Virus record (IMG/VR): IMGVR_UViG_2896601577_000002
Direction: 5' to 3' (one strand)
From: a virus
Lineage: Duplodnaviria > Heunggongvirae > Uroviricota > Caudoviricetes
DNA: 33,080 bases
Numbering within the stretch: the first letter of the stretch is position 1; the number at the start of each line of letters is the position of its first letter. Shown piece by piece: positions 1-33,080 of the stretch. The position numbers were made by a program, and so were the translations under genes. Below the pieces are notes generated by a model. It was not told the DNA's origin, did not search any database, and saw nothing but the letters and a program-made list of their open reading frames with translations.

Positions 1-495
1 TTACTGATAGTGTTTTATGTTCAGATAATGCCCGATGACCTTGTCATGCAGCTCCACCGATTTTGAGAACGACAGCGACTTCCGTCCCAGCCGTCCCAGC
101 CGTCCCAGCCGTCCCAGCCGTCCCAGCCGTCCCAGCCGTCCCAGCCGTCCCAGCCGTCCCAGCCGTCCCAGCCGTCCCAGCCGTCCCAGCCGTCCCAGCC
201 GTCCCAGCCGTGCCAGGTGCTGCCTCAGATTCAGGTTATGCCGCTCAATTCGCTGCGTATATCGCTTGCTGATTACGTGCAGCTTTCCCTTCAGGCGGGA
301 TTCATACAGTGGCCAGCCATCCGTCATCCATATCACCACGTCAAAGGGTGACAGCAAGCTCATAAGACGCCCCAGCGTCGCCATAGTGCGTTCACCGAAT
401 ACGTGCGCAACAACCGTCTTCCGGAGCCTGTCATACGCGTAAAACAGCCAGCGCTGGCGCGATTTAGCCCCGACGTATCCCCACTGTTCGTCCAT
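1..495 (-). CDS. insB: IS1 InsB transposase reading frame (made as InsAB' by -1 frameshift), carrying an in-frame (LGR)n insertion
   Basis: Translation matches IS1 InsB ([16 protein letters not shown]...HYLNIKHYQ) except for repeated LGR tripeptides; frame is open upstream to about 590. Confidence 0.85.
82..216. repeat. 9-bp tandem repeat, 14 perfect units CCGTCCCAG plus one variant CCGTGCCAG
   Basis: Counted directly: perfect units 82-207, variant 208-216. Confidence 0.95.
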
Positions 496-539
496 TTCCG
501 CGCAGACGATGACGTCACTGCCCGGCTGTATGCGCGAGG

Positions 540-815
540 TTACCGACTGCGGCCTGAGTTTTTTAAGTGACGTAAAATCGTGTTGAGGCTAACGCCCATA
601 ATGCGTGCAGTTGCCCGGCATCCAACGCCATTCATGGCCATATCAATAATTTTCTGGTACGTACCGGGTTGAGAGGCGGTGTAAGTGAACTGCAGTTGCC
701 ATGTTTTACGGCAGTGAGAGCAGAGATAGCGCTGATGTCCGGCAGTGCTTTTGCCGTTACGCACCACCCCGTCAGTAGCTGAACAGGAGGGACAGCTGAT
801 AGAAACAGAAGCCAC
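540..815 (-). CDS. insA: IS1 InsA
   Basis: 91-aa product [22 protein letters not shown]... matches IS1 InsA. Confidence 0.9.
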
Positions 816-889
816 TGGAGCACCTCAAAAACACCATCATACACTAAATCAGTAAGTTGGCAGCATCACCCAAATGCTTTATTCATTCT

Positions 890-1168
890 TTACTTCCTTT
901 TTATGGCTCGTAATTTTTTCAGGTGCTTTTCCTGCTCAGTGTCCGCGAGAATTTTGCGGTACTCCTGGTGGTCAATATGTTCGAACAGGCAGTTTAACTC
1001 ACCAATGCGTACCCGCCCGGATCGTCCGTCCATCCGTCGAAAGAACACTGAGTGCTCAGTGATGCGAGTAATCACCACGGGGTATCCAGCTCTGTCCGTG
1101 TATATCTGACCGCGTTGAATCAAAGCGAACATGTGGTTATCCCCATCGACAAATCGAGAACACAACAA
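890..1168 (-). CDS. hypothetical prophage protein (80-92 aa)
   Basis: ORF on the same strand as neighbouring early genes; no family recognised. Confidence 0.4.
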   Translation of the reverse strand: MLCSRFVDGDNHMFALIQRGQIYTDRAGYPVVITRITEHSVFFRRMDGRSGRVRIGELNCLFEHIDHQEYRKILADTEQEKHLKKLRAIKRK

Positions 1169-2384: not shown

Positions 2385-3553
<1,169 letters not shown>

Positions 3554-5998: not shown

Positions 5999-6556
5999 TC
6001 ATTTCGTTAATAATTTCATCCAGAAGGATTTCAAGCCCTTCTCGACCCATATCTGAAAGAATGAAACCTTTATCAGGGAAGTAGTGAGCATTTTCTGATA
6101 AAGAAACAGCGCTCTTCCCATTCCTTCAGCTTCGCCGTATTTTTGAATTAAATTCCATTCAATATACTGTTGTAAGGCAAATCGAATGGGGCCGGGATAT
6201 ATCGTCATAAACCCATACATCCCGTTATATACCACGGCGTGTTCAGTTGTTCCGTGTTCAGTTGTTCCGTGTTCATTCAGGATATCAATTGTGCCGTTCT
6301 TGTCTTCTTCTTCGTTGATGAATGTCGTCACATACAACCATCGCCACTGAGCAACCTTCATCTCAACCGGAAGTTTACCCAGTAATCCTGCTTCGTCGGC
6401 TTGCGCCAGACACTGAAGGATACGTAAACCTCGCACATTAGGAGTATCGAATTCTCCGGCATCCAGACGACGTATGGCGTCGTGATAATCAATCGTCATA
6501 CTGCCAGTTCGTATACCATTGGCTGTTGCTTCAGCCTGGAATTCATCGTATTGCAT
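5999..6556 (-). CDS. hypothetical prophage protein with internal 15-bp tandem duplication
   Basis: ORF; repeat 6241-6275 encodes EHGTTEHGTTEH. Confidence 0.5.
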   Translation of the reverse strand: MQYDEFQAEATANGIRTGSMTIDYHDAIRRLDAGEFDTPNVRGLRILQCLAQADEAGLLGKLPVEMKVAQWRWLYVTTFINEEEDKNGTIDILNEHGTTEHGTTEHAVVYNGMYGFMTIYPGPIRFALQQYIEWNLIQKYGEAEGMGRALFLYQKMLTTSLIKVSFFQIWVEKGLKSFWMKLLTK

Positions 6557-6561
6557 GATAT

Positions 6562-6762
6562 TTATTCCTCATCTTCATCTTCATCTTCATCTTCATCTGC
6601 TGGTGCAATAACGTCATATCCTGCCTTTTCTGCAATAAACAGGAATGTTGAAAGAGTTCCTACAAGTTCATCGTCATGAACATGGCGAATGAATATTACT
6701 TTCCCGTTTTTGATGGTCAGCAATATTCTGGTTTGTTCGTGTTCTGCTGTTTTCTGATGCAT
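6562..6762 (-). CDS. small acidic protein with (DE)n C-terminus
   Basis: ORF with GGGAGA SD; hexamer repeat 6569-6600. Confidence 0.45.
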   Translation of the reverse strand: MHQKTAEHEQTRILLTIKNGKVIFIRHVHDDELVGTLSTFLFIAEKAGYDVIAPADEDEDEDEDEE

Positions 6763-6936: not shown

Positions 6937-7298
6937 ATGATTGATGTCTTAGGGCCGGAGAAACGCAGACGGCGTACCACACAGGAAAAGATCGCAATTG
7001 TTCAGCAGAGCTTTGAACCGGGGATGACGGTCTCCCTCGTTGCCCGGCAACATGGTGTAGCAGCCAGTTATTTCTCTGGCGTAAGCAATACCAGGAAGGA
7101 AGTCTTACTGCTGTGGCCGCCGGAGAACAGGTTGTTCCTGCCTCTGAACTTGCTGCCGCCATGAAGCAGATTAAAGAACTCCAGCGCCTGCTCGGCAAGA
7201 AAACGATGGAAAATGAACTCCTCAAAGAAGCCGTTGAATATGGACGGGCAAAAAAGTGGATAGCGCACGCGCCCTTATTGCCCGGGGATGGGGAGTAA
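6937..7298 (+). pseudogene. insC: IS2 insC (OrfA) with frameshift from a 4-bp deletion
   Basis: Product matches InsC up to ...QHGVAAS, then shifts frame; the native frame resumes at [14 protein letters not shown]... (7113-7298). Confidence 0.75.
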
Positions 7299-8161
7299 GC
7301 TTAGTCAGCCGTTGTCTCCGGGTGTCGCGTGCGCAGTTGCACGTCATTCTCAGACGAACCGATGACTGGATGGATGGCCGCCGCAGTCGTCACACTGATG
7401 ATACGGATGTGCTTCTCCGTATACACCATGTTATCGGAGAGCTGCCCACGTATGGTTATCGTCGGGTATGGGCGCTGCTTCGCAGACAGGCAGAACTTGA
7501 TGGTATGCCTGCGATCAATGCCAAACGTGTTTACCGGATCATGCGCCAGAATGCGCTGTTGCTTGAGCGAAAACCTGCTGTACCGCCATCGAAACGGGCA
7601 CATACAGGCAGAGTGGCCGTGAAAGAAAGCAATCAGCGATGGTACTCTGACGGGTTCGAGTTCTGCTGTGATAACGGAGAGAGACTGCGTGTCACGTTCG
7701 CGCTGGACTGCTGTGATCGTGAGGCACTGCACTGGGCGGTGACTACCGGCGGCTTCAACAGTGAAACAGTACAGGACGTCATGCTGGGAGCGGTGGAACG
7801 CCGCTTCGGCAACGATCTTCCGTCGTCTCCAGTGGAGTGGCTGACGGATAATGGTTCATGCTACCGGGCTAATGAAACACGCCAGTTCGCCCGGATGTTG
7901 GGACTTGAACCGAAGAACACGGCGGTGCGGAGTCCGGAGAGTAACGGAATAGCAGAGAGCTTCGTGAAAACGATAAAGCGTGACTACATCAGTATCATGC
8001 CCAAACCAGACGGGTTAACGGCAGCAAAGAACCTTGCAGAGGCGTTCGAGCATTATAACGAATGGCATCCGCATAGTGCGCTGGGTTATCGCTCGCCACG
8101 GGAATATCTGCGGCAGCGGGCTTGTAATGGGTTAAGTGATAACAGATGTCTGGAAATATAG
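7256..8161 (+). CDS. insD: IS2 InsD (OrfB transposase)
   Basis: 301-aa product matches IS2 InsD. Confidence 0.85.
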
Positions 8162-20490: not shown

Positions 20491-20686
20491 AAATGTCTCA
20501 CAATTCAGGCGGTTGACTGTTGTCTGGTTTGCGGGGAGTTTGTTAAAAGAAACTGGCATGGTGAATCCCCCTGTGCGGAGGGGCAATCAGCGAGTAGGTA
20601 TATGGGATAATCGCAGATTCAGGTGCTGGTACTGAATTCACCGGGAGGCACCCGGCACCATGCAATGGCACATAGCGCCACTCTCC

Positions 20687-20722
20687 AGCCCCTCTCCGGA
20701 GGGGCTGTTTATATTGATTTTG
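20687..20722 (+). terminator. GC-rich palindromic hairpin with T-rich tail
   Basis: AGCCCCTC-TCCG-GAGGGGCT followed by GTTTATATTGATTTTG. Confidence 0.45.
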
Positions 20723-21077: not shown

Positions 21078-22391
21078 TTGGTTTCCTTGTTTATGCATTG
21101 CTGGTGATGTTCTGAAAAGTATAAATGATATTTTTGAATGTAAACCATAGAGCAGAATTATTTTTCTGATGTTGTTTATTGTTTATTTAAATGCAGGGTG
21201 GTTTATATCTCGTCTTGTAGTTTATCCATGCATATCTGCTTGATGATGAGGTTTTTATTTAAGGTATGGTTTTGTGTTTTTTCTGTATTACATGTCAGGT
21301 ATTTTAAAGAATCATTTTTCAGATGGTGGAAAGAACCATGGCATTTAAACACTATGATGTTGTCAGGGCGGCGTCGCCGTCAGATCTTGCGGAAAAGCTG
21401 ACACATAAACTGAAAGAGGGCTGGCAGCCGTTTGGTAGTCCGGTGGCCATAACCCCTTATACTCTGATGCAGGCGATTGCAGCAGAAGGTGCAGTAATCA
21501 GCGCCACCAGCAACCCGGAGTATTACTTTGTTGTGGTTCTGGCAGGGCAGTCAAACGGCATGTCGTATGGTGAAGGCCTTCCGCTGCCGGGGACATATGA
21601 CCGTCCGGACCCGCGTATTAAGCAACTGGCGCGTCGCAGTACGGTGACACCGGGCGGTGCAGCATGCAAATATAACGACATCATTCCGGCGGACCATTGT
21701 CTGCATGATGTGCAGGACATGAGCCGTCTTAACCATCCGAAAGCGGACCTGTCAAAGGGGCAGTACGGAACCGTGGGGCAGGGGCTGCATATCGCCAAAA
21801 AACTGCTGCCGTTTATACCGGCGAATGCGGGCATTCTGCTGGTTCCGTGCTGTCGTGGTGGTTCAGCGTTCACCACCGGAGCTGATGGCACATACAGTGA
21901 CGCGAGTGGTGCCTCGGAGAATTCAACCCGCTGGGGTGTGGACAAGCCGCTGTATAAGGACCTTATCGGTCGAACAAAAGCGGCACTGGAGAAGAACCCG
22001 AAAAATGTGCTGTTTGCCGTGGTGTGGATGCAGGGGGAATTTGATTTTGGCGGTACGCCGGCAAATCATGCCGCACAGTTTGGTGCGCTGGTTGATAAAT
22101 TCCGTGCAGACCTGGCGGATATGGCAGGCCAGTGCGTCGGTGGCTCTGCTGGCGGTGTTCCCTGGATATGCGGGGACACGACGTATTTCTGGAAGCAGAA
22201 GAACGAATCCACGTACCAGACGGTGTACGGCAGCTATAAAAATAAAACGGAAAAGAATATCCATTTCGTACCGTTCATGACCGATGAGAACGGGGTGAAT
22301 GTGCCGACGAACAAACCGGAAGAAGACCCGGACATTCTGAACCGCCCCGGGAATCCTGGAGACTAAACTTCCTGAGAAAGAGGTAAACAGG

Positions 22392-22718
22392 ATGACTAAA
22401 AATACTCGTTTTTCCCCCGAAGTCCGTCAACGGGCAGTCCGTATGGTTCTGGAAAGTCAGGGCGAATATGACTCACAATGGGCGACAATTTGTTCCATTG
22501 CTCCAAAGATTGGCTGTACGCCGGAGACTCTGCGTGTCTGGGTTCGCCAGCATGAGCGGGATACCGGGGGCGGTGATGGAGGGCTCACCACCGCTGAACG
22601 TCAGCGTCTGAAAGAGCTGGAGCGTGAAAATCGTGAACTGCGCCGCAGTAACGATATCCTTCGCCAGGCTTCCGCTTATTTTGCGAAGGCGGAGTTCGAC
22701 CGCCTCTGGAAAAAGTGA
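22392..22718 (+). CDS. IS629 OrfA
   Basis: 108-aa product [19 protein letters not shown]... Confidence 0.9.
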
Positions 22719-23605
22719 TGCCACTGCTGGATAAGCTGCGTAAGCTGTACGGGGTCGGACCGGTATGCAGTGAACTGCATATTGCCCCGTCAACGTATTA
22801 CCACTGTCAGCAACAGCGACATCATCCTGATAAACGCAGTGCCCGTGCGCAGCGCGATGACTGGCTGAAGAAAGAGATACTGCGCGTATACGATGGGAAT
22901 CATCAGGTATACGGTGTGCGTAAAGTCTGGCGTCAGTTGTTACGGGAAGGTATCAGAGTGGCCAGATGCACTGTGGCACGTCTCATGGCGGTTATGGGAC
23001 TTGCCGGTGTTCTCCGGGGTAAAAAGGTCCGTACGACCATCAGCCGGAAAGCCGTTGCCGCAGGCGACCGCGTAAACCGTCAGTTCGTGGCAGAACGACC
23101 TGACCAGCTGTGGGTAGCTGATTTTACTTACGTCAGCACATGGCAGGGCTTCGTCTATGTGGCGTTCATCATTGATGTGTTTGCCGGATACATTGTGGGG
23201 TGGCGGGTCTCATCGTCCATGGAGACGACATTCGTGCTGGATGCACTGGAGCAGGCGTTATGGGCCCGTCGACCGTCCGGCACGGTCCATCACAGTGATA
23301 AAGGTTCTCAGTATGTATCGCTGGCCTACACACAGCGGCTTAAGGAAGCCGGATTACTGGCATCAACAGGAAGTACAGGCGACTCGTATGACAACGCGAT
23401 GGCGGAGAGCATCAATGGTCTTTACAAAGCGGAGGTAATACACCGTAAGAGCTGGAAAAACCGTGCAGAAGTGGAACTGGCCACACTCACGTGGGTGGAC
23501 TGGTATAACAATCGACGATTGCTGGAAAGGCTGGGCCATACTCCTCCGGCAGAAGCAGAAAAAGCTTATTATGCTTCCATCGGAAACGATGATCTGGCAG
23601 CCTGA
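22715..23605 (+). CDS. IS629 OrfB transposase
   Basis: 296-aa IS3-family DDE transposase. Confidence 0.9.
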
Positions 23606-27537: not shown

Positions 27538-27906
27538 GCGACCTTATTAACCATGCGCGGTATTGTCGCCGTATCCCCGCATTAACAGAGACCGCAGCCC
27601 GACCGGGAGACTCCTCTGCGCGAGTGTGCGGGGATAATCAAAAACGATACACACCGGGGTTTACCGCGTTAACGGAGCGCGGCGTTGTCCCCTCATGGTC
27701 GCTGGTCCGGTGCGATGGTGGAAGAAACCGGACGATGTGTTACCTCGCAAGCTCTGTTATGTCATGTGTCTGATTTGTGATTTAAGTCGGATAATTGTCG
27801 TTGCCATTAAGCAGAGGATTGATGACCGACAGGGTGGCATTGTTAGAATAAGTGAACCGCCCCGGGAATCCTGGAGACTAAACTTCCTGAGAAAGAGGTA
27901 AACAGG

Positions 27907-28233
27907 ATGACTAAAAATACTCGTTTTTCCCCCGAAGTCCGTCAACGGGCAGTCCGTATGGTTCTGGAAAGTCAGGGCGAATATGACTCACAATGGGCGA
28001 CAATTTGTTCCATTGCTCCAAAGATTGGCTGTACGCCGGAGACTCTGCGTGTCTGGGTTCGCCAGCATGAGCGGGATACCGGGGGCGGTGATGGAGGGCT
28101 CACCACCGCTGAACGTCAGCGTCTGAAAGAGCTGGAGCGTGAAAATCGTGAACTGCGCCGCAGTAACGATATCCTTCGCCAGGCTTCCGCTTATTTTGCG
28201 AAGGCGGAGTTCGACCGCCTCTGGAAAAAGTGA
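27907..28233 (+). CDS. IS629 OrfA
   Basis: Identical product to copy 1. Confidence 0.9.
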
Positions 28234-29120
28234 TGCCACTGCTGGATAAGCTGCGTAAGCTGTACGGGGTCGGACCGGTATGCAGTGAACTGCATATTGC
28301 CCCGTCAACGTATTACCACTGTCAGCAACAGCGACATCATCCTGATAAACGCAGTGCCCGTGCGCAGCGCGATGACTGGCTGAAGAAAGAGATACTGCGC
28401 GTATACGATGGGAATCATCAGGTATACGGTGTGCGTAAAGTCTGGCGTCAGTTGTTACGGGAAGGTATCAGAGTGGCCAGATGCACTGTGGCACGTCTCA
28501 TGGCGGTTATGGGACTTGCCGGTGTTCTCCGGGGTAAAAAGGTCCGTACGACCATCAGCCGGAAAGCCGTTGCCGCAGGCGACCGCGTAAACCGTCAGTT
28601 CGTGGCAGAACGACCTGACCAGCTGTGGGTGGCTGATTTTACTTACGTCAGCACATGGCAGGGCTTCGTCTATGTGGCGTTCATCATTGATGTGTTTGCC
28701 GGATACATCGTGGGGTGGCGGGTCTCATCGTCCATGGAAACGACATTCGTGCTGGATGCTCTGGAGCAGGCGTTATGGGCCCGTCGACCGTCCGGCACGG
28801 TCCATCACAGTGATAAAGGTTCTCAGTATGTATCGCTGGCCTACACACAGCGGCTTAAGGAAGCCGGATTACTGGCATCAACAGGAAGTACAGGCGACTC
28901 GTATGACAACGCGATGGCGGAGAGCATCAATGGTCTTTACAAAGCGGAGGTAATACACCGTAAGAGCTGGAAAAACCGTGCAGAAGTGGAACTGGCCACA
29001 CTCACGTGGGTGGACTGGTATAACAATCGACGATTGCTGGAAAGGCTGGGCCATACTCCTCCGGCAGAAGCAGAAAAAGCTTATTATGCTTCCATCGGAA
29101 ACGATGATCTGGCAGCCTGA
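28230..29120 (+). CDS. IS629 OrfB transposase
   Basis: Identical product to copy 1. Confidence 0.9.
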
Positions 29121-29899: not shown

Positions 29900-31420
29900 G
29901 CTTTTACGTTAATTTGATGCAGATCAATCAATACGATAGTAAGGCAGTATGACTTTCCGTGAGACAGATGCTGGCCAACGTGGGATATTTAACGCGGGTT
30001 AACATCGTTGTCAGAGCCGCATGGGTGAGCTGTTGCTACACCCCGGTATTTCCACCACGGAGGCCAGCATGAACAACAATAACACATTGTACGTCGGGTT
30101 AGATGTTCACAAAGAATCGATTACTGTCGCTTATGCTATCAATTCAGAACCTGTTGAACTGATGGGTAAAATTGGCACATCACCTACTGATATTCAGAAT
30201 CTTTGTAAACGTCTCAGGTCAAAGTCATCGCAGGTCAGTATCGTTTATGAAGCGGGGCCCTGTGGTTATGGACTTTATCGTCGGCTGGTGAAATCCGGTT
30301 TTGACTGCATGGTCTGCGCCCCCTCACTTATCCCGAAAAAACCGGGGGAGCGGGTTAAAACCGATCGCCGTGATGCCATCAGACTTGTGCGTTCACTGCG
30401 TGCAGGAGATCTTTCTGCTGTCTACGTACCCGGCATTGAAGATGAGGCATTCCGGGATTTGGCCCGGGCATGGGCATCTGCCCGCGATGATTTACGGCAT
30501 GCAAGGCAACGTCTGAAATCGTTTCTTCTGGTTCATGGGGTCCATTATGTCGGGCGAGCAGATTGGGGCCCTGCACACCGACGCTGGCTCAGCAAATACT
30601 CATTCGAAAGTCCCTGGCGACAATTAGCTTTTGACGAACACCGTCGTACAATAGAAGACCGGCAGGCACAATGTGAACGGCTGGAATCCGCCCTGAAGGA
30701 GGCCGTTACCGAATGGAGGCTGTATCCGGTAGTAGAGGCGCTGCAAGCCATGCGAGGGATTCAGTTTATTACTGCGGTTGGATTAATTTCTGAACTGGGT
30801 GATCTGACCCGTTTTGAACATCCACGACAACTGATGTCATGGTTTGGTATCACGCCATCAGAATATTCATCGGGTGGAAGCAGACATCAGGGCAGCATTA
30901 CCAAAGCCGGAAACAGCTATGCCAGAAAGCTATTGGTCGAGGCAGCGTGGAGTTACCGTCATCCGGCACGCATCAGTCCGGCAATACAAAAAAGGCAGGA
31001 AAATTTACCCCGCCCCGTCATTGACAGAGCATGGGATGCTCAACTCAGGCTTTGTAAGAGGTATCGAAAACTTCAGGCCAAAGGAAAGAATGTCAATATT
31101 ACAATTGTTGCTGTTGCACGTGAGCTGGCGGGTTTTATCTGGGATATGGGCCGAATAGCAATGTCTGTCGCACAACAACCACAATGTCACAAATAAAAAT
31201 GAGAATAACCAGTTCCCTGAAGGCGACGTAGCCCGGTACAAGAGTAACCCACGTTAGCGCTTGGCGACGGCGGAACAAAGCTGATTCGCGACGTAAGAAA
31301 GTGGCAGGCTCATATGACGGACCTCTGTAATGCGGTATCCAACCCGCGAATATCAGCGTGATTCACCGTCGGATTTACTGCTACGTCGCCCTCAGGGAAT
31401 TAAACCTAAAAAGAAAATCG
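29900..31420 (+). mobile_element. IS110-family insertion sequence; boundaries cannot be set from sequence alone
   Basis: DEDD-type transposase gene; this family lacks conventional terminal IRs and TSDs. Confidence 0.3.
30069..31196 (+). CDS. IS110-family (DEDD) transposase
   Basis: N-terminal YVGLDVHKESITVAY and KTDRRDA motifs; C-terminal Transposase_20-like region; SD GGAGG. Confidence 0.85.
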   Translation: MNNNNTLYVGLDVHKESITVAYAINSEPVELMGKIGTSPTDIQNLCKRLRSKSSQVSIVYEAGPCGYGLYRRLVKSGFDCMVCAPSLIPKKPGERVKTDRRDAIRLVRSLRAGDLSAVYVPGIEDEAFRDLARAWASARDDLRHARQRLKSFLLVHGVHYVGRADWGPAHRRWLSKYSFESPWRQLAFDEHRRTIEDRQAQCERLESALKEAVTEWRLYPVVEALQAMRGIQFITAVGLISELGDLTRFEHPRQLMSWFGITPSEYSSGGSRHQGSITKAGNSYARKLLVEAAWSYRHPARISPAIQKRQENLPRPVIDRAWDAQLRLCKRYRKLQAKGKNVNITIVAVARELAGFIWDMGRIAMSVAQQPQCHK

Positions 31421-31439: not shown

Positions 31440-33080
31440 TTTGACACGGAAAGTCATATCAGCGTCAACGGAGCACCGTATTGACGCTTATTTATTGGTG
31501 AGTGCTACGTTCCATGGCAGGAGTTCGTCAACACGGTTGGAAGGCCATTCCGGCAGTACGCTCAGGATATAGCGCAGATACGCTTCCGGATCGATACCGT
31601 TCAGTCGGCAGGTGCCGATCAGCCCGTACAGTAGCGCACCACGCTCTCCACCGTGATCGCTGCCGAAGAACATAAAGTTTTTCTTTCCGAGACAGACTGC
31701 ACGAAGCGCTCTTTCCGCGGCATTATTATCCGCCTCAGCCAGACCATCATCACTGAAGTTGCACAACGCAACCCAGTGCTTCCTGATATACCGGAACGCA
31801 TCTCTCAGACGGCATTTTTTCGATAACGTGTGTTCTTTCTCCTGCATCAGCTTATACAGGGAAGTCAGTAGCGGTTTACTCTGCATTTGCCTGACCGCCA
31901 GGCGTTCAGACACCGGCAACCCGCGTATTTCGTGCTCGATGGCGTACAGCTCACCGATTAGTTTCAGGGCTTCTTCCGCTGTCGCGCTTTTGGTACTGAT
32001 ATATACATCGTGGACTTTGCGCCGCGCATGAGCCCAGCATCCTGCTTCCGTCAACGCGCCGCCTTCTCGTTCGGCACTGAACAGCCGATCGTAACCATTA
32101 AACGCATCTGCCTGCAGGATACCCCGGAAGGGACTAAGGTGCTGCTCCGGATGTTTACCCTGATGGTCCGGTGAGTAGGCGAACCAGACCGCCGGAGGCT
32201 CTGGCGAACCGGCATTCCTGTCATCCCGGACATACGTCCAGATATATCCTGTTTTCGCCTTCTTCCTGCCCGGTGCCAGCACTTTTACTGGTGTGTCATC
32301 AGTGTGAACTTTGCGGCTGTTCATCACATAACGGTACAGAGCATCATTCAGCGGCGTCATTAACTGGCAGCACGCGTCAACCCAGTTGGAGAGTAATGCA
32401 CGGCTCAGTTCGACACCCTGACGGGCAAAAATTTCACTCTGACGATACAGTGGCAGGTGTTCGCAGTATTTTCCCGTTAACACGCGGGCAAGTAACCCCG
32501 GGCCCGCGATACCACGCTCTATCGGACGGGATGGTGCCGGTGCTTCAACGATGCAGTCACATTTTGTACAGGCTTTTTTTACCCGTTCTGTGCGGATCAC
32601 TTTCAGAGCGCTGCTCACCAGTTCCAGTTGTTCTGCGCTGACTTCCCCCAGATAATCCAGCTCACCGCCACACTCCGGGCAACAGCTTTCTTCTGGCTCC
32701 AGGCGATTTATTTCGCGGGGCAGATGCTCCGGTAACGGGCGACGATGACGAGACTGTCGCAACTGGCGGGGAACCTGCGGATCGTCTTCCCGCCCACTGT
32801 AACGATCACTGTCCTGTTCGCGTTGTTTCAGCAGGGCCTCAGCCTGTTCAACTTCACGACGCAGTTTTTCAGAACGGGTACCGAACAGCATCCGGCGCAG
32901 TTTTTCTATCTGAGCCCGCAGATGTTCTATTTCCCGTTCATCTTCTTCGATCTTTTCTTCGGCGCGGGCCAGTGCAGAGCGCAGGAAGGCCTCCGTCTCT
33001 TCAACCAGACTCAGTTGCTGGTCTTTCTGACGGAGCTGGCATTCCAGTTCTGCAATGCGAATGAGGTATTTTTGATTCAT
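31440..33080 (-). mobile_element. IS66-family element, partial (tnpC end; remainder beyond the right edge)
   Basis: TnpC-like gene followed by an IR-like palindromic sequence TAAGCGTCAATACGGTGCTCCGTTGACGC. Confidence 0.5.
31488..33080 (-). CDS. tnpC: IS66-family transposase TnpC
   Basis: 530-aa product with N-terminal coiled coil, Cys cluster CPECGG...CTKCDC and IS66 TnpC-like core; ATG sits exactly at the window edge. Confidence 0.85.
   Translation of the reverse strand: MNQKYLIRIAELECQLRQKDQQLSLVEETEAFLRSALARAEEKIEEDEREIEHLRAQIEKLRRMLFGTRSEKLRREVEQAEALLKQREQDSDRYSGREDDPQVPRQLRQSRHRRPLPEHLPREINRLEPEESCCPECGGELDYLGEVSAEQLELVSSALKVIRTERVKKACTKCDCIVEAPAPSRPIERGIAGPGLLARVLTGKYCEHLPLYRQSEIFARQGVELSRALLSNWVDACCQLMTPLNDALYRYVMNSRKVHTDDTPVKVLAPGRKKAKTGYIWTYVRDDRNAGSPEPPAVWFAYSPDHQGKHPEQHLSPFRGILQADAFNGYDRLFSAEREGGALTEAGCWAHARRKVHDVYISTKSATAEEALKLIGELYAIEHEIRGLPVSERLAVRQMQSKPLLTSLYKLMQEKEHTLSKKCRLRDAFRYIRKHWVALCNFSDDGLAEADNNAAERALRAVCLGKKNFMFFGSDHGGERGALLYGLIGTCRLNGIDPEAYLRYILSVLPEWPSNRVDELLPWNVALTNK

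Follow-up and report, generated by a model that had tools for sequence, protein, structure and literature searches.

The IS1 element that opens the analysed window (the whole stretch of viral DNA under analysis, 33,080 nt long) carries 15 head-to-tail copies of a 9-bp unit in its insB reading frame. We give a probability of about 80% to the reading that this array is real and recent, and that it arose by slipped-strand expansion (or unequal exchange) of a latent 9-bp minisatellite present in every IS1 insB. The 15-unit array is an undescribed variant of a well-known element, generated via a well-known mutational process and present as a single copy in a single genome. In the literature searched, we found no description of the repeat, or of its unit, as variable or as a VNTR.

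A 9-bp array within the insB reading frame

Tandem Repeats Finder reported a period-9 array at 82-216, the sole array found there, with 15.0 copies, 99% matches and the consensus CCGTCCCAG. Direct reading of the same positions in the one deposited assembly from which the unit count is taken gave 14 copies of CCGTCCCAG, all identical, followed by a single copy of CCGTGCCAG. The exactly periodic run covers 130 bp (82-211), and a two-unit 18-mer found 14 matches with at most one mismatch, compared with none in 100 shuffles. The first-pass annotation had described 14 identical units plus one variant, and both the program and the direct reading agree with that description. As expected of a VNTR or minisatellite, identical units are arranged head-to-tail far beyond what chance would give, and the copy number differs between genomes at one site, with alleles of 2, 3, 4, 10 and 15 units.

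On the minus strand, the insB frame reads RQHLAR, then (LGR)x14 and then 26 residues. Thirteen of the 14 LGR triplets are additional to canonical IS1, and this translation also bears out the earlier statement that 117 bp had been added in frame, with 13 extra LGR tripeptides near the C-terminus of InsB. Because the unit measures 9 bp, the frame is kept, and the intact ORF is therefore no evidence of selection. Likewise, since such a unit lies inside an ORF and every allele keeps the frame, the array does not switch the gene on and off by repeat change as a phase-variable contingency locus does. The repeat also creates, as by-products, ORFs that cross the array on the plus strand (SRPSRP..., VPAVPA...). 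We considered and rejected the idea that (GRL)n is a collagen-like Gly-X-Y repeat, as the sequence lacks prolines, a trimerisation domain and a secretion signal. The features of the element and of the adjoining DNA are collected in Table 1.

Table 1. Features of the expanded IS1 and of the DNA next to it (positions in the window)
Feature	Position	Strand	Description
14 identical 9-bp units	82..207	-	CCGTCCCAG on the plus strand, CTGGGACGG on the insB coding strand; encode (LGR)x14
Variant unit CCGTGCCAG	208..216	-	CTGGCACGG on the coding strand, L-A-R; ancestral imperfect partner
insB' reading frame	1..588	-	Stop codon at 1-3; uninterrupted as far back as slightly upstream of the A6C frameshift site
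Longest ATG-started insB ORF	1-495	-	164 aa, versus 125 aa in the canonical element
insA	540..815	-	91 aa, intact; Zn-ribbon + HTH; -1 frameshift motif TTAAAAAACTC near the 3' end
Left inverted repeat	848..870	-	GGTGATGCTGCCAACTTACTGAT on the coding strand; 870 is the last position of the element
Right inverted repeat	window start	-	Last 15 nt outside the window, seen at L065 10496-10510
Prophage DNA adjoining IS1	871..1132		DUF4222 gene at 890-1132, minus strand

Structure and family membership of the host element

The complete element was read in the chromosome record CP026867.1, at a locus (L065) that carries the window in reverse orientation. It occupies L065 9626-10510, with the array at about chromosome positions 162,210-162,344, and is 885 bp long, i.e. 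768 + 117 bp; this full reading establishes the length of 885 bp, instead of 768 bp, that had been deduced from the window. The insB stop codon occupies the very start of the window, so that 15 nt of the right inverted repeat fall outside it and 870 bp of the element are present. Only one contig, the 4,607,924-bp chromosome GCA_002949895.1 / CP026867.1, was found to carry the exact 164-aa InsB, and an exact look-up in a collection of 15 billion proteins returned neither this protein nor the fused 271-aa InsAB'.

The organisation is that of the IS1 family. Terminal inverted repeats of about 23 bp (GGTGATGCTGCCAACTTACTGAT / GGTAATGACTCCAACTTA...) bound the element, the right one being complete in L065, and insA precedes insB', which is in the -1 frame and reached at an A6C slippery site. 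A simulated -1 frameshift yields an InsAB' of 271 aa, versus 232 aa for the canonical protein, and the Pfam domains Zn_ribbon_InsA, HTH_Tnp_IS1 and DDE_Tnp_IS1 were all detected above cut-off. The 8-9-bp target-site duplication of the family is missing from the expanded copy, whose flanks are aagcatttg and ccgtaggaa; this reflects the history of that copy and not its family membership. Finally, the InsA of the expanded copy bears a His53Tyr variant that we also found in S. dysenteriae NCTC 9718 (CP026786.1, locus L081), a historical Shigella strain, at a different chromosomal locus; the IS1 concerned has two units there, and no insB gene is called in it.

Prophage context

In intact prophages, the gene order is DUF4222, a 44-aa ORF, a xis-like gene and int, followed by mlrA. 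Compared with these (L067 4263-5448), IS1 replaces 1,186 bp that comprise the 44-aa ORF, the xis-like DUF1233 gene and 761 nt at the 5' end of int. Because there is no target duplication and 1,186 bp are replaced (window 848-1132; L065 9580-10620), the junction looks like the outcome of an IS1-mediated adjacent deletion, which would have locked the prophage beside mlrA (yehV). The expanded IS1 is a fixed remnant at a deletion junction in a decayed prophage, and no IS1 was found at the same prophage junction in sibling genomes.

Elsewhere, the window consists of a decayed, Stx-phage-like prophage in which elements of the IS3, IS110 and IS66 families are very dense. A 5.5-kb prophage segment is enclosed, in the manner of a composite transposon, by two identical IS3-family copies in direct orientation (22338-23605 and 27853-29120, 5,515 bp apart), each of which has an ALIL frameshift pseudoknot (22673-22789 and 28188-28304). 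Further transposases lie at 2385-3224, 7256-8161, 30021-31196 and 31488-33080 (two of the IS3, one of the IS110 and one of the IS66 family), and the IS66-family ORF, the last in the window, ends exactly at the window end. Between 20203 and 22366 lie, in this order, a tRNA-Met/Arg/Arg cluster, the sRNA STnc100 (20527-20716) and a nanS-p-like esterase gene (21323-22366; DUF1737 and SASA domains). Stx phages have this layout around stx, but here stxAB would not fit in the gap, and the interval has no listed ORF of stx size (at least 120 aa). Within the lambdoid prophage, Rfam matches to isrK (11254-11330) and to C4 antisense RNA (11352-11439) mark an antisense immunity module of the P1/P7 type. 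The window also has two short in-frame repeats, both perfect: at 6238-6275, a 15-bp unit present 2.5 times encodes GTTEHGTTEH in a 185-aa ORF, and at 6569-6598, (TCATCT)x5 encodes the DEDEDEDEDE C-terminal tail of a 66-aa ORF.

Copy-number alleles of IS1

A second IS1 copy lies 7 kb away in CP026867.1 (L065 17517-18284). It is 768 bp long, contains two units and is flanked by the target duplication gaactcttg; relative to the expanded copy, 5 of its 768 positions differ, all of them outside the array. The canonical two-unit sequence gacttCCGTCCCAGCCGTGCCAGgtgctg was read in this copy and in the second IS1 of another locus (L003). The first-pass annotation had given two imperfect units as the canonical state; these two copies show that it was right, and the neighbour with its two units supplies the comparison within the same genome that the first-pass annotation had proposed.

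The distribution of unit numbers was surveyed by BLAST of the array with 45-nt flanks on 5,426 complete E. coli genomes, in which 66,297 IS1 places were covered. The great majority of these places have two units. Three units were found in more than 50 records, four in five records (PM7, JSMCR1, WWCOL-256, OZ261671 and ECZP248) and ten in one record (LR-71-1, AP027599.1). With an E-value filter that passes only alleles of at least five units, the 5,426 complete E. coli genomes gave exactly one place, that of LR-71-1, where the long allele is a single copy in its own genome. A three-unit allele is also present at a further locus (L002). Plasmids of PLSDB reach a maximum of four units (67 records with at least three), and all the phage records have two. 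Among metagenome contigs, a pattern anchored in IS1 found one IS1 with three perfect units and none longer. Exact-pattern scans of viral contigs gave no match with four perfect units and three unrelated matches with three, and an exact scan for three or four perfect units in the GTDB species representatives gave 58 matches, all in unrelated organisms, mostly high-GC actinobacteria. Over the collections covered (complete E. coli genomes, plasmids, phages, one genome per species, and viral and metagenome contigs), no allele of 5-9 or 11-14 units was found. At the protein level, no other (LGR)n InsB appeared among cluster representatives, where clustering at 90% identity can hide variants and where the 10-unit E. 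coli protein is absent too. Small steps to three or four units are uncommon yet have spread, and long arrays are very rare. NCBI annotates the 4- and 10-unit copies as an ordinary 'IS1 family transposase, programmed frameshift'.

The 10-unit IS1 of LR-71-1 (L077 2955-3794) is 840 bp long and is inserted between rlmB and yjfI with a perfect target duplication, atatatgac. No other E. coli was found with an IS1 at this insertion site, the IS1 copies near rlmB-yjfI being separate insertions a few bases away. The rlmB-yjfI spacer looks like an IS1 hot spot, with separate insertions in several E. coli strains. Outside the array, the 10-unit element differs from the 15-unit copy at 17 positions. Because 17 substitutions separate the two long alleles, versus five between the 15-unit copy and its own neighbour, the 10- and 15-unit expansions are separate events in different IS1 lineages, and expansion has thus occurred at least twice. 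The alleles of 2, 4, 10 and 15 units all keep the variant unit at one and the same terminus; what has multiplied is the perfect unit alone.

Among InsB entries, many from draft genomes of E. coli and one from Kluyvera contain a single in-frame internal duplication of about 56 residues, in several cases with the junction precisely at the LGR motif. Either these duplications are genuine, microhomology-mediated events or they are assembly errors.

Origin of the array

We infer the slippage mechanism and the recency of the event, as well as the effect on the transposase that is considered below. The starting state would be canonical IS1, with two adjacent units that differ at one base. A rare slippage would produce a second perfect unit and thereby the 3-unit allele; perfect units could then misalign freely, and further steps would lead to 14 perfect units followed by the ancestral variant unit. 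Such a stepwise path to 15 units is itself reconstructed from the alleles and is to be read as a proposal. Slippage is favoured because the variant unit stays terminal while only the perfect unit multiplies, and the expansion would be recent since the units show no divergence.

The first-pass annotation had offered two explanations, recent slippage and an assembly artefact. According to the latter, the strain would truly possess two units, or an array of another length, and the 15 units would have been produced or mis-counted during assembly or polishing. The 15-unit allele is indeed a singleton, its exact protein being found on one contig. In addition, of the lengths from 127 to 135 bp, only 130 bp has the required form 9n+4, and a de Bruijn assembler working at k=127 would emit 130 bp for any longer array; the odd internal duplications of InsB entries from draft assemblies also show that IS1 is error-prone for assemblers. 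However, a perfect repeat of 130 bp cannot be invented by an assembler from a two-unit template, as k-mers come from reads, the record is a finished chromosome that very probably belongs to a PacBio-only project, and the site does expand, as is shown by the 10-unit allele of LR-71-1, an unrelated E. coli whose genome is finished. From its accession range, CP026867.1 is presumably a PacBio Shigella chromosome: accessions on both sides of it are attributed to Kim et al. 2018, reportedly a PacBio study of 59 historical Shigella strains, in PMC7819885 (CP026774-CP026786 and CP026878) and in PMC10132075 (CP026832, called 'a PacBio sequence' there). With PacBio data the count should be near right, as a large number of reads would cover the 135 bp from end to end; with short reads, 15 units could be a lower bound. 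We consider it improbable that the array is not real, and we hold the artefact explanation to be decidedly unlikely. Recent slippage is preferred over it because graded alleles of 3, 4 and 10 units occur in unrelated finished genomes; the finished state of the chromosome, the independence of the 10-unit allele and the terminal position of the variant unit point the same way.

Unequal homologous recombination, or gene conversion, between IS1 copies could have expanded the array in place of intramolecular slippage. Partners are at hand, the window and its flanks being rich in insertion sequences, including the second IS1 at 7 kb, and the expanded IS1 has a history of rearrangement, as it lacks a target duplication and sits beside the 1,186-bp deletion. 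Nevertheless, as long as the array is short, a register shift of 9 bp leaves much too little homology for RecA-dependent exchange, and the IS1 flanks of the array present no mosaic pattern beyond five scattered substitutions. We regard this route as highly improbable, with the reservation that its outcome and that of slippage are indistinguishable from sequence data alone.

Predicted consequence for the transposase

The DDE_Tnp_IS1 domain, which is normally matched in one stretch (residues 102-232), is split by the array into two stretches at profile position 105/131 (251 bits). In InsAB', the insert consists of 39 residues, (LGR)x13, starting from residue 207, 15 residues after the putative catalytic Glu-191. 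It follows H200 and R203 and precedes the last 26 residues, so that Y231 becomes Y270. According to the usual DDE signatures, the catalytic residues would be D109 (AEMDEQW), D166 (MTDGW) and E191 (RIERHN), with R198 at +7. Serre et al. (1995) reportedly found a His-Arg-Tyr triad to be essential in the IS1 transposase, and we take H200, R203 and Y231 to be this triad, as their positions fit.

Since the array interrupts a conserved Pfam domain, separating the catalytic Glu helix from the C-terminal tail, an altered activity is plausible, and the transposase of the expanded copy is probably weakened or abolished. Such an impairment is consistent with, but does not follow from, the finding of each long allele at one place only. 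The loss of one IS1 copy when other copies are present should be selectively neutral. The AlphaFold2 model of the expanded InsB', built from a shallow alignment, was of too low a quality (mean pLDDT 42) to show more than a beta-beta-beta-alpha-beta...alpha order, and no solved homologue was found by sequence.

Folding of the G-rich repeat and possible selection

The coding strand of the array, (CTGGGACGG)n, contains three non-overlapping matches to a G3-N(1-7) x4 quadruplex motif, and the 33-kb window has no others. The resemblance is at the level of the motif (at least four G3 tracts, with loops of 1-7 nt), which needs at least four perfect units. For the mRNA, modelled with ViennaRNA as the array with 60-nt flanks, a long imperfect hairpin is predicted, with -102 kcal/mol at 15 units versus -35 at two, and the quadruplex is not chosen in the minimum-energy fold. 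When folded as DNA, the G-rich strand does not surpass shuffled sequences (z = -0.98), and the C-rich strand is unstructured.

These properties are relevant to the idea that the expansion is a functional variant favoured by selection, in which (LGR)n or the G-rich repeat would tune IS1 activity. This could operate through a dominant-negative or self-limiting transposase, or through an mRNA hairpin or G-quadruplex lowering the translation of InsAB'. The frame is preserved and the remainder of the element is intact, but a 9-bp unit preserves the frame automatically. The quadruplex motif is unique in the window and the predicted mRNA fold is stronger at 15 units, but the minimum-energy fold includes no quadruplex and the G-rich DNA strand behaves like its shuffled counterparts. 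Two independent long alleles exist, but each is single-copy and restricted to one genome among more than 66,000 IS1 places, with no sign of spread or of meaningful recurrence; moreover, the expanded copy is stranded at a deletion junction without target duplication. A selected variant thus seems very unlikely to us, and we retain recent slippage of a neutral repeat as the preferred reading.

We also give a very low weight to a threshold minisatellite, in which alleles of up to four units would be stable and heritable, whereas those with at least four perfect units would gain a quadruplex or hairpin motif and run away to 10 or 15 units, the insert or the mRNA then silencing the transposase or making it dominant-negative. 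A threshold effect on instability or on translation is put forward here only as a hypothesis. If true, it would provide an intrinsic and recurrent route of self-inactivation for a very widespread insertion sequence.

Significance and comparison with known systems

The expanded IS1 is a genuine curiosity for which no wider importance is shown. Its weight for genome biology is small, as it concerns one IS1 copy in an IS-riddled genome, probably disabled by a neutral expansion. IS1 is among the commonest enterobacterial insertion sequences and contains an expandable 9-bp motif; length-based IS typing, short-read assembly and automated annotation can mis-handle an expanded IS1. The natural series of 2, 3, 4, 10 and 15 units corresponds to 3 to 39 residues inserted just after the catalytic Glu helix, and these alleles form a ready-made set on the tolerance of the C-terminus of the IS1 transposase and on the effect of a G-rich message on InsAB' synthesis.

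The expanded copy shares with canonical IS1 and its iso-forms the inverted repeats, the insA domains, the A6C motif and DDE_Tnp_IS1, with about 98-99% identity outside the array; it differs from canonical IS1 by its length of 885 bp, its 15 units instead of two, its 271-aa InsAB' and the lack of a target-site duplication. The alleles of 3, 4 and 10 units have in common with it the site, the unit, the terminal variant unit and the preserved frame. Unlike the 15-unit copy, the 10-unit IS1 of LR-71-1 has fewer units, belongs to a different iso-IS1 and is flanked by a 9-bp target duplication. The InsB duplications of about 56 residues are, like the array, in frame and located in the C-terminal part of InsB, but there the segment is duplicated once, via microhomology between two distant LGR-encoding sites, and the entries come from draft assemblies. 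Finally, bacterial coding VNTR loci of the MLVA type resemble the array in their perfect head-to-tail units, a unit length divisible by three, a count that varies between strains and the lack of divergence between units. In contrast to such loci, the IS1 array resides inside the transposase of a multi-copy mobile element and not in a surface or contingency gene, and its long alleles are extremely rare, with one place in more than 66,000.
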